Part shown: positions 3,006 through 25,421 of the stretch, one piece after another
Position numbering within the stretch: the first letter of the stretch is position 1
Layout: the number at the start of each line of letters is the position of its first letter
Source: a virus
Lineage: Duplodnaviria; Heunggongvirae; Uroviricota; Caudoviricetes
Reading direction: 5' to 3' (one strand)
Virus record (IMG/VR): IMGVR_UViG_2568526722_000004
Location: 1 to 26,789 of that record
DNA: 26,789 nt
Translations under genes and position numbers: made by a program
The notes under the pieces: generated by a model
What the model was told of the DNA's origin: nothing
The model's input: only the letters and a program-made list of their open reading frames with translations
The model's database searches: none

Positions 3006-3680
3006 ATGAAAACAATCCATGACATCCGGCGGTCTAACGCCAGAAAACTGAGAGATGGTGTTGGCGGGAATTCTTCCTTTGCCACTATGATTGATCGCGA
3101 GCCAACCCAGACCAGCAGGTTTATGGGAGATGGTGCTACTAAAAATATCGGTGACAGCATGGCACGACACATCGAAAAATGTTTCGACCTGCCTGTCGGA
3201 TGGCTCGATCAAGAACACCAGACAACGAACATCACAAAAAAACCTGATGTTTCAATCACTAATAAACAAATCACATTAGTCCCTGTCATATCATGGGTAC
3301 AGGCCGGAGCATGGAAAGAAGTTGGATATTCTGAGGTTGATTTGAGCACAGCAGAAACGTATCCCTGCCCTGTACCCTGTGGGGAAATGACTTATATCTT
3401 GCGGGTGATAGGTGATTCAATGATTGATGAGTACCGCCCGGGAGACATGATTTTTGTCGATCCTGAAGTACCTGCCTGCCACGGTGACGACGTTATTGCA
3501 TTGATGCACGATACAGGCGAAACCACCTTCAAAAGGTTGATAGAAGATGGGACACAGCGTTATCTCAAAGCGTTAAACCCAAACTGGCCTGAGCCTTACA
3601 TTAAGATCAACGGTAATTGCTCTATAATTGGTACAGTGATTTTCTCAGGAAAACCAAGAAGATACAAAATCAAAGCCTAA
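3006..3680 (+). CDS. CI-like phage repressor with LexA/S24 peptidase C-terminal domain
   Basis: 224-aa ORF; C-terminal ...YILRVIGDSMIDEYRPGDMIFVDPEV... has the GDSM serine motif of the S24 (LexA/CI) autopeptidase family; divergent from the Cro-like gene; followed by a terminator. Confidence 0.75.
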   Translation: MKTIHDIRRSNARKLRDGVGGNSSFATMIDREPTQTSRFMGDGATKNIGDSMARHIEKCFDLPVGWLDQEHQTTNITKKPDVSITNKQITLVPVISWVQAGAWKEVGYSEVDLSTAETYPCPVPCGEMTYILRVIGDSMIDEYRPGDMIFVDPEVPACHGDDVIALMHDTGETTFKRLIEDGTQRYLKALNPNWPEPYIKINGNCSIIGTVIFSGKPRRYKIKA

Positions 3681-3719: not shown

Positions 3720-3752
3720 TTGACAATGTACCTTTGAGATACATAATGTACC
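3720..3752 (+). promoter_or_regulatory. Sigma70-like promoter (pL-like) with flanking TGTACC operator half-sites
   Basis: TTGACA (3720-3725), 17-bp spacer, CATAAT (3742-3747); ATGTACC at 3726-3732 and 3746-3752 overlap the promoter elements. Confidence 0.5.
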
Positions 3753-3914
3753 CAAGCGAAACAACGAACAGGCAGGACGCCCACGAAGTAGCCGCCTGGA
3801 GCATATGAAGTCCAGGATGATTCGTTAGCAACAAAAAAGCGCCCTACAGGACGCTTAGCTCTTTAACAATCTGGTCCCCATCAACAAGTAACTGATAACT
3901 TGAGGAGATGTGAA

Positions 3915-4121
3915 ATGCACAAAACAGAACCCAAAATCGTCGCGCCTGGCTACACAGATGAGGAAATTTATGAGTGGATGACAAAGAAGCTGGCAGCTAT
4001 AAACCAGCTTCGTGAAGTGCTGTCTTATCGACAGGAAACAATAGACTCCTTAAAAAAACTGGATCAGGAAATCACGGTTTTATCACAGGATGTTACTTTA
4101 GATATTGTGCAGACAAATTAG
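3915..4121 (+). CDS. Hypothetical small protein
   Basis: 68-aa ORF from the ATG at 3915, preceded by GAGGAG; the track ORF uses an upstream TTG at 3900. Confidence 0.35.
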   Translation: MHKTEPKIVAPGYTDEEIYEWMTKKLAAINQLREVLSYRQETIDSLKKLDQEITVLSQDVTLDIVQTN

Positions 4122-4527
4122 GATCCCATTCATTTTCGTCAAAATCATCAAAGTGATGAATTTGTGATCTCCAGTCTCGATAATCTAAAAATTTCTGGGC
4201 GGTTACGCTTATTTTATCAAGTGTGAGTTCATCCTGAATTGAAAGAAGAAGTTCATCAAATTTCATCTCATTAATCTGTTTTGGCATCCAGTGATGCTTC
4301 ATCAGAATAAGGTGAACCAGAGCCTTTTTCCCATTCAACTGATTATAGGGAGTGCCGAATTTCTTCCGGTGCTCATGTAAGACAAGGTCCAAAAGAGTAA
4401 GTAATGTTGCCCTTGATTCAACTTTGCTTATTTCGACTGATGACACTACCCCACTGATTTCAATGCCCCGATACTTTCCAACATTTTCACAGTGGGATTT
4501 GTACAGCGTATAGATATTACCGGACAT
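4093..4527 (-). CDS. Hypothetical protein (AT-rich moron, opposite strand to the surrounding operon)
   Basis: 144-aa ORF with AAGGA RBS; markedly AT-rich compared with its flanks; convergent with the upstream small gene; preceded by two direct repeats. Confidence 0.5.
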   Translation of the reverse strand: MSGNIYTLYKSHCENVGKYRGIEISGVVSSVEISKVESRATLLTLLDLVLHEHRKKFGTPYNQLNGKKALVHLILMKHHWMPKQINEMKFDELLLSIQDELTLDKISVTAQKFLDYRDWRSQIHHFDDFDENEWDPNLSAQYLK

Positions 4528-4542
4528 TTCTTTTCCTTTTGC

Positions 4543-4590
4543 GTTGTTGGGGATAACCAGATTAACCGAATCCTTGTTGTTGGGGAATAA
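4543..4590. repeat. Two direct repeats GTTGTTGGGGA(A)TAAC upstream of the moron gene
   Basis: GTTGTTGGGGATAAC at 4543-4557 and GTTGTTGGGGAATAAC at 4575-4590, 16-48 bp upstream of the start codon at 4527. Confidence 0.5.
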
Positions 4591-4995
4591 CTAGGTCCAC
4601 CTCGCCTGATGTGGCTAAAAGCAGGCACATAACAGCTAAGTATTTTCAACCAGAGAGAATCCTTAGCGTTGTGGTGAATGCGGCTCAGCGCACGCGGGTT
4701 AAGGTTGAGGCTGACAGTCGACCTTCTGTGGATACCCACCCGCCTGGTGTGCAACCTTCGCCAGGCACCGGGAGGCACCCGGCACCACAACTTTATGCTG
4801 TGTGTAGTCTTGGCGGTACCAGCTTGTACCCTTGCTTCCGGCTGGTACCGTCCTTTTTACAAAACAGAGAAGAGCATCACCGGACGACGGGCTCATAACC
4901 CAATCCATCCGGGCGGCAGTCACCGCAGGTGTTCTTCTCTGTTTTGTGGAGAAACTAACCGACCTTGCAGGGTCGATATGATGAGGAGCAGCAAA

Positions 4996-5358
4996 ATGGC
5001 TAGCGAACGCAGTACTGATGTGCAGGCATTTATCGGGGAGCTGGACGGCGGCGTATTTGAAACCAAAATCGGCGCAGTTCTCAGTGAAGTCGCTTCCGGT
5101 GTGATGAACACGAAAACCAAAGGTAAGGTCTCGCTCAACCTGGAAATCGAACCGTTTGATGAGAACCGAGTGAAAATCAAACACAAACTCTCATATGTTC
5201 GCCCGACTAACCGCGGGAAAATTTCCGAAGAAGACACCACCGAAACGCCGATGTATGTCAATCGCGGTGGTCGCCTGACTATTCTGCAGGAAGACCAGGG
5301 ACAGTTACTGACTCTTGCCGGTGAACCTGACGGAAAACTCCGCGCAGCAGGTCGTTAA
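4996..5358 (+). CDS. Hypothetical prophage protein (yfdP-like position)
   Basis: 120-aa ORF from the ATG at 4996 with AGGAG RBS; the longer track ORF 4678..5358 has an implausible GC-rich, non-protein-like N-terminal part. Confidence 0.5.
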   Translation: MASERSTDVQAFIGELDGGVFETKIGAVLSEVASGVMNTKTKGKVSLNLEIEPFDENRVKIKHKLSYVRPTNRGKISEEDTTETPMYVNRGGRLTILQEDQGQLLTLAGEPDGKLRAAGR

Positions 5359-9307: not shown

Positions 9308-10288
9308 TCATGCTAAAGCTCGAGCTACATTTTCTTTGATCGCAATAGCACAAGGAGTTTTGAACTTTTCTTTGCAACAGTGTAATAGCGTATTAATATT
9401 CAAATCAGTTTCAAGAATATTTTTTAGCTCACTCTTTCTTTCCGAGATTAAGGTTGGTTTATCTTTGCATTGTTTGACTATTAAGGCAGTTTCATTAATA
9501 TTCAATTGCTCTATCAATGATTTTATGACAGGCATGACAACTCTATCAGCTAAAAAATGACCATTGATATATTGATAGGCGTTATCTTCTCTCAATCCTT
9601 TATCATATAACTGCTCATAGAATTTATCAGCATCGTATTCATCTTGAATAAGGTTATCAAGTTTTTCTTCAATAACCGCTTTAGATTGCTGCATACTTTC
9701 AAATACAGCATTTTTGATAACAAATTGGTTCGTTAATCGTGGCACAGAAGGAGCAATCGCTTCATGGAAAACTGAGTCATCAAGTCTAACTTGATGCTGT
9801 TTAAGCAATAAAAATTTCTTCAGCACGGGGTAGATCAACCGTGAATACTCTGTAATGTATGCTGTAAAATCGAATTTAATTTCAGTAGCGATCTTTATTT
9901 GAGAAAGACAATACTCAAGGACTTCATGGTGTAACTCGATGCTCTCTTTTGAATATACAAATGTTTGAAAAATAAACTTGTTACTGCAAATTATCTCTGA
10001 GTCTGTACTGTTTTTAGGGCATAAATAATCAAAATCACTATCCATTGCAAATATGGCATATCGATTTGCTCGGCTCATGAATTTTTTTAATACTGGTTTC
10101 CCTTTTGTTCCTTTATTGGTAGGGTTACAAATATCAAAACGTATATCATTATCTTTATCGTTTAATAAGCCTTCCCAGAAAGAAATGTCTTTTAGACCTT
10201 CAACAAAGACAAAGCCATTGTGTCCAGCCATAATACAATATACCTGAAGATATTCTTCGCTAAAATTAATATCCTCAAACTCAGTCAT
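9308..10288 (-). CDS. ariB: AriB-like DUF4435/Toprim protein (PARIS defense system effector)
   Basis: 326-aa ORF overlapping the upstream ATPase gene by 8 nt; N-terminal Toprim-like features (MAGHNGFVFVEGLKD..., acidic AIFAMDSDFDY); low GC; the pairing with an ABC-type ATPase is the PARIS (AriA/AriB) architecture. Confidence 0.6.
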   Translation of the reverse strand: MTEFEDINFSEEYLQVYCIMAGHNGFVFVEGLKDISFWEGLLNDKDNDIRFDICNPTNKGTKGKPVLKKFMSRANRYAIFAMDSDFDYLCPKNSTDSEIICSNKFIFQTFVYSKESIELHHEVLEYCLSQIKIATEIKFDFTAYITEYSRLIYPVLKKFLLLKQHQVRLDDSVFHEAIAPSVPRLTNQFVIKNAVFESMQQSKAVIEEKLDNLIQDEYDADKFYEQLYDKGLREDNAYQYINGHFLADRVVMPVIKSLIEQLNINETALIVKQCKDKPTLISERKSELKNILETDLNINTLLHCCKEKFKTPCAIAIKENVARALA

Positions 10289-23842: not shown

Positions 23843-23964
23843 ACCTCAGCGTCCTCTACTGTAGTGGCTGTACCAGTCCGTCGAGGTGTACGGATTTTCG
23901 GGAGCGACCCTAGACACAGCCTTTTCTTTCGTCGCTCAAAGTCTACTACTGTATACTCAACCAG

Positions 23965-25343: not shown

Positions 25344-25362
25344 AATGGTGCCGATAATAGGA
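25344..25362. repeat. att core at the thrW 3' end (attL of element A)
   Basis: AATGGTGCCGATAATAGGA overlaps the last 17 nt of the tRNA gene; imperfect direct repeat at 8973-8990. Confidence 0.7.
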
Positions 25363-25421
25363 GTCGAACCTACGACCTTCGCATTACGAATGCGCTGCTC
25401 TACCAACTGAGCTATATCGGC
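25346..25421 (-). tRNA. thrW: tRNA-Thr (anticodon CGU)
   Basis: Reverse complement is GCCGATATAGCTCAGTTGGTAGAGCAGCGCATTCGTAATGCGAAGGTCGTAGGTTCGACTCCTATTATCGGCACCA: 76 nt, cloverleaf-compatible, anticodon loop TTCGTAA, encoded CCA; sits immediately downstream of proA as thrW does in E. coli. Confidence 0.95.

Follow-up and report, generated by a model that had tools for sequence, protein, structure and literature searches.

We describe a structured RNA element in a stretch of 26,789 nucleotides, positions 1 to 26,789 of the IMG/VR virus record IMGVR_UViG_2568526722_000004, which we call the window. Judged by its sequence, the window is a temperate phage or prophage of the SfIV/SfV/SfII type, with E. 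coli or Shigella as host. On its plus strand, positions 4668-4947 are the RNA leader of the early-left operon (yfdP, yfdQ, yfdR, yfdS ... xis, int), and this leader consists of a closed core domain of the type of the small RNA (sRNA) family STnc100 (4668-4791), a linker and intrinsic terminator like those of the sRNA KilS (4792-4858), and a long hairpin (4859-4947). An earlier note on this DNA had marked the region between a moron gene and the yfdP-like gene as noncoding and dense in hairpins, and had offered a prophage sRNA, a processed leader or a terminator under antitermination control as explanations. All four hairpins that it named can be read in the sequence, within 1-2 nt of the positions it gave; its outer boundaries need adjustment, as the element begins a little later than noted, with the core at 4668, and ends at ~4947.

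The genes around the element are ordered as follows. A cro-like gene on the minus strand ends near 2915, the cI-like repressor occupies 3006-3680 on the plus strand, and a small open reading frame (ORF) on the plus strand separates it from the moron (4093-4527, minus strand). Past the element, the yfdP-like coding sequence (4996-5358, plus strand) starts at an ATG at 4996, in frame with the ORF 4678..5358, and is followed on the same strand by homologues of yfdQ, yfdR and yfdS, with xis and int farther along. Operator-like repeats of the TGTACC-N5-GGTACA type mark OR, where three copies lie between cro and cI (2921-2988), and OL/pL, where two copies lie just past cI (3725-3763); because of the latter, the early-left promoter is placed near 3720-3780. 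The cI gene, the OL operators and the element (4668-4858) all lie on the plus strand, the operon runs away from cI, and the element is found ~900 nt into it, counted from the cI-controlled OL/pL region. Rac and Qin have the same cI and early-left layout, and in all five of SfIV, e14, ST64B, phiES15 and mEp460 the element lies 3' of the cI-like repressor on the early-left strand. Over the region, identity is 97-100% with phages Kati, SfIV, SfV and SfII and ~78% with Salmonella ST64B; 2781 of the 5426 complete E. coli genomes have it conserved, as have 74-98 phage records.

The core domain and its covarying pseudoknot

The core is a 124-nt closed multi-helix junction (4668-4791, plus strand; -56.6 kcal/mol) built from helices P1, P2, P4 and P5 plus a pseudoknot that joins 4701-4707 to 4752-4758. 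Its parts follow one another in a fixed order: P1, the invariant GGUGAAU, P2, a variable middle, P4, and the invariant ACCGGGAGGCACCCGGCACC, in which P5 abuts the 3' strand of P1. P1 pairs GUUGUGGUG (4668-4676) with CACCACAAC (4783-4791) and differs widely among relatives, as in phage P1 (GUUGCGGUG/CACCGCAAC) and 933W (GCAUGGUG/CACCAUGC); all 7 modelled pairs change on both sides, one of them being UA in 64 and CG in 40 of 122 distinct sequences. The junction AAU (4677-4679), part of GGUGAAU, is invariant in alignments A1 and A3. P2 (4680-4695) is the hairpin GCGGC-UCAGC-GC(A)CGC with a bulged A4692; four of its five pairs change on both sides, the canonical type CCCC(C)...G(A)GGGG carries the same bulged A, and variants of the form CCUUUC/GAAAGG also occur. 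P4 (4742-4766) pairs GCCUGGUG with CGCCAGGC, all 5 modelled pairs change on both sides (GC:43 AU:34 UA:19 CG:15 in one example), and its loop UGCAACCUU (4750-4758) carries the 3' strand of the pseudoknot. P5, CCGGG-AGGCA-CCCGG (4768-4782), stacks directly on the P1 3' strand and is nearly invariant, being identical in 29 representatives; in Rac and Qin it reads CCUGG...CCAGG/A, a compensatory change that keeps the AGGCA loop. P1, GGUGAAU, P2, P4 and the P5 segment ACCGGGAGGCACCCGGCACC are all found when the element is aligned with 933W and H-19B in A1 and A3. Two of the hairpins in the earlier note thus acquire a different meaning: what it described as GCCTGG...CCAGGC near 4750, where GCCTGGTG (4742-4749) pairs with CGCCAGGC (4759-4766), and the hairpin near 4768 are not separate units, but P4 and P5 of one closed pseudoknotted domain. 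A further hairpin just upstream, CUAAG...CUUAG (4636-4666, plus strand), appears in the minimum free energy (MFE) fold at -7.0 kcal/mol alone and is weak and uncertain; some small hairpin stands at the equivalent place in ST64B, phage P1 and phiES15, in a different register (alignment A1).

The evidence that these helices exist is comparative. RNAalifold predicts P1, P2, P4 and P5 from 29 representatives; a covariance model (R1) built from those 29 yielded an alignment of 126 hits over several genera, and pair statistics were taken on the 122 distinct sequences. Standard pairs are formed in 97.1% of cells, against 81.4% in shuffles and ~45% with slid partners; 19 of the 22 pairs change on both sides, and compensatory cells number 392, where shuffles lead one to expect 86. 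The alignment is fitted to the model and so favours pairing, yet the slid controls and the diversity of pair types far exceed that bias. Because G.U pairs are frequent, the structure is assigned to the plus strand. We conclude that the closed core helices are a real, conserved RNA structure.

The pseudoknot is supported in the same manner. Its 5' strand AAGGUUG (4701-4707, plus strand) pairs with CAACCUU (4752-4758) in the P4 loop, a duplex of -6.9 kcal/mol. Nearly every representative has 6-11 nt after P2 complementary to its own P4 apical loop, and the sequences differ: AAGGCUG with CAGCCUU in phiES15, UGGUUAU with AUAACCA in phage P1, CUGGU with ACCAG in 933W, and CCAGUC with GACUGG, GAACUGGCA with UGCCAGUUC and AGACUGACAAA with UUUGUCAGUCU in other representatives. 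When each 5' segment from 32 representatives was paired with its own loop and with the loops of the remaining 31, own loops gave a mean of 6.53 Watson-Crick pairs and foreign loops 4.31; none of 10000 permutations reached 6.53. A preprint that analyses the structure of STnc100 and PasD (by RNAalifold only) makes no mention of the pseudoknot, DicF, KilS or the K-12 copies described below.

A permissive Rfam scan matches STnc100 (RF02076) to 4638-4861 over the whole model (positions 1-206 of 206), with 43.4 bits and an E value of 4.7e-8. The covariance check that the earlier note had proposed is therefore answered by a significant match that falls under the curated gathering cut-off of 47 bits, which is why a default scan lists nothing at the element. 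Model R1 scores the core at 80.2 bits (4667-4792), a sequence identical to the core having been in its seed, and finds no second copy within the window. Searches for a tRNA-like or other described RNA gave nothing with ARAGORN and, in Rfam at E values up to 10, only STnc100 and a weak DicF; matches to hairpin-ribozyme, ftsZ-DE and FMR1-AS1 are noise.

Are the hairpins nevertheless incidental to a GC-rich spacer, or part of a small gene of the YmfH or SfIV_34/35 kind, with no function as RNA? Several database records annotate ORFs of the region as hypothetical proteins or YmfH, and the window has long stop-free stretches in several frames, with mechanical ORFs of 95, 226, 114 and 161 aa. The claim of the earlier note that no ORF here is credible nevertheless stands: no frame stays open among homologues, the open frames differ from one homologue to another, in Qin, Rac, P1 and phiES15 each of the six frames is interrupted by stops, and the substitution pattern is that of a paired RNA. 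Folding, the other check that the note had called for, agrees, since 4636-4862 reaches -91.7 kcal/mol (z -3.17; 2 of 200 shuffles as good) and 4855-4996 reaches -58.2 kcal/mol (z -5.87; 0 of 200). The stems are conserved in related prophages, with helices and pseudoknot supported by covariation over ~120 Enterobacterales copies, and homologues are experimentally detected RNAs. We give this explanation next to no credence; for practical purposes, the chance and protein-coding readings are excluded.

The tail, the long hairpin and the operon

Behind the core, a linker (4792-4811, plus strand) that is unpaired in the MFE fold holds the 14-mer UGCUGUGUGUAGUC (4796-4809), which may be a seed or an RNase E region. 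The 14-mer is identical in KilS, an sRNA of the Rac prophage of E. coli K-12 (PMC8175672), and near-identical in e14, ST64B and phiES15. No further match to the complement of this putative seed, at up to 3 mismatches, was found within the window when a phage-internal target was sought. An intrinsic terminator follows on the plus strand, with a 13-bp stem (4812-4853) in which GGCGGTACCAGC (4812-4823) pairs with GCTGGTACCGTCC (4841-4853), then U5 at 4854-4858, the hairpin having -23.0 kcal/mol; it is the stem that the earlier note had called terminator-like. A consensus terminator scan missed it because its apical region exceeds the 8-nt maximum loop of that scan. The terminator aligns with the terminator part of the Rfam STnc100 model. 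Linker and terminator together are identical to the 3' 65 nt of KilS at 51 of 60 positions (85% identity), and the stem shows compensatory changes, so that of the options in the earlier note the prophage sRNA gains homology support on both sides, from STnc100 for its 5' two-thirds and from KilS for its 3' third. KilS was found by RIL-seq (ligation and sequencing of interacting RNAs) on Hfq, is verified by northern blot and apparently has its own start site (PMC8175672). The annotation of KilS ends at the final U of the homologous U5 tract, and this 3' end is therefore the best available evidence that the terminator of the window would work. The Rfam model of DicF (RF00039; cut-off 48 bits) scores 19.4 bits here (E 0.13), 28.5 in e14 and 39.1 on Rac KilS; at 19.4 bits the tail is therefore KilS-like and only distantly DicF-like.

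The U-tract runs directly into the long hairpin (4859-4947, plus strand; -45.5 kcal/mol), a 20-bp stem (4859-4878 with 4928-4947) that closes a small three-way junction. The 16-bp inverted repeat that the earlier note saw here is real; its 3' 16-mer is TTCTTCTCTGTTTTGT at 4932-4947 rather than CTCTTC... at 4931-4946, so that one position is a G.U wobble. A repeat search extends the arms to 25 nt, 4859-4883 and 4923-4947, at 84% complementarity. e14 and ST64B keep the stem, with one G-C to A-U double change and several G.U/G-C switches, and because such switches are tolerated on the plus strand only, the hairpin is assigned to that strand. In mEp460, cdtI and Stx2c phages the terminator, the long hairpin and the yfdP start form a single mosaic block; the part upstream of it differs there, and the mEp460 core is weak and degenerate (24 bits). 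As the predicted fold offers ~20 bp of near-perfect double-stranded RNA, as RNase III sites do, the hairpin is a candidate RNase III site in read-through transcripts. The processed leader of the earlier note is thus compatible with the sRNA and probably true as well, the element lying in the yfdP...xis-int leader with an RNase III-type stem after it. Downstream, the sequence and MFE fold give a small hairpin, CGACCU-UGCA-GGGUCG (4960-4975, plus strand), and a Shine-Dalgarno sequence GAGGAG (4983-4988, plus strand) stands ahead of the yfdP-like ATG.

A strong terminator must be passed for xis and int to be reached, and this raises the possibility that the core is a processive antiterminator RNA like the put RNAs of HK022, a nascent domain that would bind RNA polymerase and allow read-through of 4812-4858 and later terminators. 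The core does lie in leaders of long operons that contain terminators, in the window that of the early-left operon and, in Pantoea and Superficieibacter prophages, in the stretch from Q to the lysis genes; SfIV has no annotated N-like gene between cI and yfdP, and 4687-4708 resembles putL locally at 18 of 22 nt. That resemblance is at chance level by BLAST (E 11). With putL and putR located by the residue numbering of PMC9378689, the core covariance model finds nothing in the HK022 immunity region that holds them, and we reject membership in the put family. The put RNAs are V-shaped, with two stems in ~70 nt and no closing helix (PMC9378689), unlike the closed multi-helix pseudoknot of the core, and the late-operon copies of the core lie in operons already served by Q. 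Nor did we find an alternative antiterminator pairing, so that the third option of the earlier note, a terminator controlled by antitermination, receives no support. Cardinale et al. in 2008 reportedly traced the silencing of kilR to NusG/Rho-dependent control. That kilR is reported to be silenced in a NusG/Rho-linked manner despite the core immediately upstream of it (PMC5793797) fits poorly with a constitutive antiterminator, and we regard this reading as very improbable.

Other observations concern the wider window. An exact 11-nt direct repeat, GTTGTTGGGGA, lies at 4543-4553 and 4576-4586, 33 nt apart, between the moron start and the RNA element, and one copy of it is inverted relative to 3868-3887; the repeat may be a regulatory site of the divergent moron promoter. 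On the minus strand, an int-alpA RNA (Rfam RF02996) is found at 23853-23920 with 45.5 bits against a cut-off of 35.8, and a tRNA-Thr (CGU) at 25346-25421, which is plausibly the integration site of this prophage.

Relatives of the core and the reading of the element

A pattern scan of IMG/VR returned at least 120 loci with 91 distinct cores, and a scan of one genome per species at least 120 further loci, in genera that are almost all Enterobacterales (Escherichia, Salmonella, Klebsiella, Raoultella, Kosakonia, Enterobacter, Citrobacter, Pantoea, Erwinia, Rahnella, Buttiauxella and others). E. coli K-12 is among the carriers. In e14 a core lies under the coding sequence annotated ymfH, directly 5' of xisE-intE (L004 4065-4189, ymfH 4069-4380); it scores 63.5 bits with R1, has a P5 loop one base short, and is joined to a KilS-like terminator. 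The YmfH ORF is probably not a gene, as its frame is not kept in homologues. Qin has a core in the dicF-dicB spacer (NC_000913 ~1649453-1649582; L011 3954-4083; R1 65.2 bits, Rfam 34.4 bits), and Rac one in the kilS-kilR spacer (NC_000913 ~1418261-1418391; L132 9262-9392, minus strand; R1 59.8 bits, Rfam 28 bits). CPS-53, the K-12 prophage that bears yfdP, holds no copy of the core. Phage P1 carries one in its ban operon, between upl, on the opposite strand, and tciA (NC_005856 ~70077-70202; L003 3001-3126; R1 77.1 bits), and in ST64B and phiES15 the core is found between the repressor and yfdP-like or kil genes. The copies of K-12, P1, ST64B and phiES15 score 28-41 bits in Rfam, all below the cut-off, and they all lack an RNA annotation. 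Rac and Qin show the order sRNA, 19 nt, core, gene, the opposite of the window, where the core precedes the KilS-like tail; the modules have therefore been shuffled.

Some of these loci show further features. Predicted upl promoters lie downstream of the P1 core, so that the 5' untranslated region of upl would run antisense to it, and three tRNAs and a region annotated as dicF-like are also found in the ban operon. In Rac, on the upstream side of kilS (L132 ~9560-9610, minus strand), GGUGGUGAAAUAAAACCGGGCACAAC resembles the ends of a core with the interior deleted; the likeness was seen by eye and not detected by the model, and it would suggest an older core-sRNA-core arrangement. ST64B (L005 409-597, minus strand) and mEp460 (L007 324-512, minus strand) have a C4 antisense RNA (~80-84 bits) beside an isrK RNA (64-67 bits), and this pair adjoins antirepressor-like regulator genes.

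What follows the core varies. An intrinsic terminator stands within 110 nt of 56 of the 91 distinct viral cores, past a variable and mostly unpaired linker; in Rac, Qin and P1, the core ends 31 nt from the start codon of kilR, 26 nt from that of dicB and 30 nt from that of tciA. Genes downstream belong mainly to two groups, of which the early-left one encodes YfdP-like or Kil proteins, and the late one holins, LpxR-like outer-membrane proteins and NanS-type esterases. This suggests another explanation, in which the core, as a domain of the leader, acts in cis, sensing or binding a metabolite, an ion, a protein or the ribosome and controlling the genes that follow through a terminator or the ribosome-binding site, the sRNAs of its relatives being by-products of attenuation. 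A closed fold with a covarying pseudoknot, the invariant GGUGAAU, the bulged A of P2 and ACCGGGAGGCACCCGGCACC are what such a domain could show; it would act on either of two downstream platforms, terminator or nearby start codon, always shares a strand with the downstream genes, and often lies directly 5' of toxic or cell-division genes (kil, dicB, kilR). In the window the pseudoknot strand (~4701-4708) even has a local competitor at ~4718-4725 (CGACCUU, 4719-4725), which could act as a switch, but this competing hairpin is kept neither in phiES15 nor in P1. Against a cis sensor speak also the linker of 20-70 nt between core and terminator, which is variable and mosaic, the arrays of cores set back to back, and the canonical copy of 933W and H-19B, which lies in a 3' untranslated region, 75 nt after stxB, and overlaps EcOnc27/sRNA103. 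No Rfam riboswitch family matches 4400-5100 at E values up to 10, and no conserved, mutually exclusive pairing of the P1 3' strand with the terminator was seen, no systematic search having been made. On balance we consider a cis-acting leader unlikely.

The arrays are a feature in their own right. They hold 3-6 cores each, some 8-20 nt apart, and each core has its own pseudoknot sequence. In Pantoea prophages 4-5 cores separate a Q-like gene from the lysis genes, a Pantoea plasmid has two sets of three adjacent cores with one terminator per set, and Superficieibacter has three core-plus-terminator units just 5' of a holin gene. The loci are L171 948-1990 (minus strand; plasmid), L206 4136-5928 (minus), L194 6399-7835 (minus), L201 2063-3602 (plus) and L170 6368-7003 (minus); in the prophages L206, L201 and L170 the arrays fill or adjoin the space between the Q-like gene and the holin/lysozyme/Rz cassette. 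Adjacent cores that share a single terminator, and a P5 (GGAGGCACC) and junction that are invariant across Enterobacterales genera, are what one might expect if the core were an autonomous decoy or sponge titrating a conserved host protein or RNA, the KilS-like tail merely providing a 3' end; as the core persists in the decayed prophages e14, Rac and Qin, the partner would then belong to the host rather than to the phage. P5, however, is not a typical GGA-loop site of CsrA, the window holds a single core, and at no point does the present evidence separate a decoy from a scaffold. We judge a decoy improbable. More broadly, the STnc100-type core might be an autonomous RNA domain that binds a host component or ligand, acting in cis on phage operons or as a multi-copy decoy, a possibility that we consider less likely than not. 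If this is true, the core could gate in cis such genes as the toxic early genes kilR and dicB and the late lysis genes, and a widespread class of Enterobacterales prophage RNA, with three sites in K-12, would have been misfiled as an ordinary sRNA.

With somewhat more confidence than doubt, we favour the reading of the element as a composite prophage sRNA, an STnc100 core with a KilS/DicF-type tail, that also gates the yfdP-xis-int operon. Core, linker and terminator follow one another as scaffold, seed and terminator do in sRNAs, and the same layout is found in EcOnc27/sRNA103, PasD and KilS, all of them Hfq-associated relatives. The analysis demonstrates the family relationships, the helices and pseudoknot through their covariation, the strand, the anatomy of the terminator and the synteny; the ends of the RNA, its Hfq binding, the seed function, the processing by RNase E and RNase III and the core's own role are what we infer for the element, in the following manner. 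Polymerase arriving from upstream, from pL after repressor cleavage or from a weak local promoter, would mostly halt at U4854-4858 and release an RNA of ~190-225 nt, in which a structured 5' domain is followed by an unpaired stretch like a seed and then by the terminator and its U-tail. Trimming by RNase E in the AU-rich linker could yield a short species like DicF or KilS. The RNA would bind Hfq via the terminator and U-tail and base-pair with targets through the linker, and the core, as its stable 5' domain, would protect the RNA or bind a conserved partner in the host, or do both. The terminator at 4812-4858 would also restrain expression of the downstream yfdP...xis-int genes, and RNase III would probably cut read-through transcripts inside the long hairpin.

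A number of points weigh against the composite sRNA. Both family scores lie below their curated cut-offs, STnc100 at 43.4 against 47 bits and DicF at 19.4 against 48 bits, and for this locus and sub-type it is homology and structure that point to an sRNA. A sigma-70 promoter scan found no convincing promoter directly upstream of the element, and when 91 upstream regions were profiled by position, nothing but an AT-rich patch emerged, in which A stands at -13 and T at -9 counted from GGUGAAU, a result that is not decisive. Since the OL operators are ~900 nt away, the RNA may be made only after induction. A terminator of -23 kcal/mol must somehow be passed for xis and int to be expressed. The e14 counterpart, ymfH-xisE-intE, is induced by the SOS response (PMC2634741), which counts in favour of the composite sRNA and means that a degree of read-through has to take place. 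One does not expect a mere scaffold to have a conserved pseudoknot, or nucleotides in junction and loop that are invariant. The cores of Rac, Qin and P1 are not followed by a terminator but lie near the starts of kilR, dicB and tciA, and Pantoea places up to three cores ahead of a single terminator; copies that lack a terminator, copies adjacent to a ribosome-binding site, arrays and invariant residues together suggest that the core has a function of its own.

What does it matter? Where hypothetical proteins are annotated in the window there is an RNA element, and it probably sets how the excision and early-left genes are switched on. Relatives of STnc100 that score below threshold go unannotated in well-studied loci, namely ymfH of e14, the dicF-dicB and kilS-kilR spacers and the P1 ban operon, and the STnc100/PasD, KilS and DicF families of sRNAs have common modules that have been shuffled. 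If the core controls kilR and dicB in cis, this would bear on how cell-division toxins of cryptic prophages are silenced and released under stress, and where cores stand in tandem between Q and the lysis genes, the same question arises for late-gene control.

Comparison with known systems

The closest relatives of the core are the canonical STnc100 members. EcOnc27/sRNA103 are bound by Hfq, as found by cross-linking and analysis of cDNA (Hfq-CRAC), and verified by northern blot (PMC7873438, PMC12711010); PasD1 and PasD2 of enteropathogenic E. coli are Hfq-dependent, northern-verified hubs in RIL-seq (PMC8550237; bioRxiv 10.64898/2026.05.13.724894). With STnc100 the element shares the closed core, GGUGAAU, P2 with its bulged A, P4 and ACCGGGAGGCACCCGGCACC closing onto P1, and both continue into a linker and an intrinsic terminator, reside in Enterobacterales prophages and are encoded in sense orientation within a long phage operon. 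They differ in P2, which is GCGGC...GC-A-CGC in the element and CCCCC...G-A-GGGG in the canonical form, in the P3 region, and in position, the element being in the early-left leader after cI, whereas the canonical copy is found in the interval from Q/stx to the lysis genes; in its linker and terminator the element is KilS-like and departs from the canonical STnc100 tail. An antisense partner of the AsxR or AgvB type was not matched on the minus strand of the element in the Rfam scan.

With KilS the element has in common the linker UGCUGUGUGUAGUC, the GGCGG...CCGCC terminator and the U5 tail, and its likeness to DicF is gapped. Position in a lambdoid early-left operon is common to all, and in Rac and Qin an STnc100-type core is the immediate neighbour of KilS and DicF. 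The 5' third of KilS, the region of its own transcription start, is absent from the element, where the core takes its place, and the ftsZ-pairing segment of DicF is not kept.

The putL and putR RNAs of HK022 are, like the element, structured nascent RNAs in an early-operon leader of a lambdoid phage with no obvious N and with terminators downstream. A put RNA of ~70 nt has two stems and a triplex and starts at the transcription start (PMC9378689), whereas the element has a 124-nt closed pseudoknotted junction. The 6S RNA of lambda (pR'-tR') and StxS likewise arise where a terminator at the head of an operon blocks the operon and frees a short stable RNA; the late-region copies of the core lie at the same spot, between Q and the holin gene, whereas the copy of the window is early-left, and the sequences are unrelated. 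Neither StxS nor 6S RNA is known to have a comparable pseudoknotted domain (PMC7873438). The RNase III sites of lambda, in the N leader and at sib, offer an analogy to the 20-bp stem of the long hairpin, which also lies in the untranslated early-left part before the first ribosome-binding site; the analogy is structural and does not extend to sequence.

In the open-access papers searched we found no prior report of the pseudoknot, of the modular link between STnc100, KilS and DicF, of the K-12 and P1 copies or of tandem arrays, and no paper naming KilS and DicF together; on ymfH these papers give operon and induction data only. As STnc100, KilS and DicF are known, we do not claim a new category for the element, which is a family variant that scores below threshold, has a different P2, lies in an early-left leader and is fused to a KilS-type tail.

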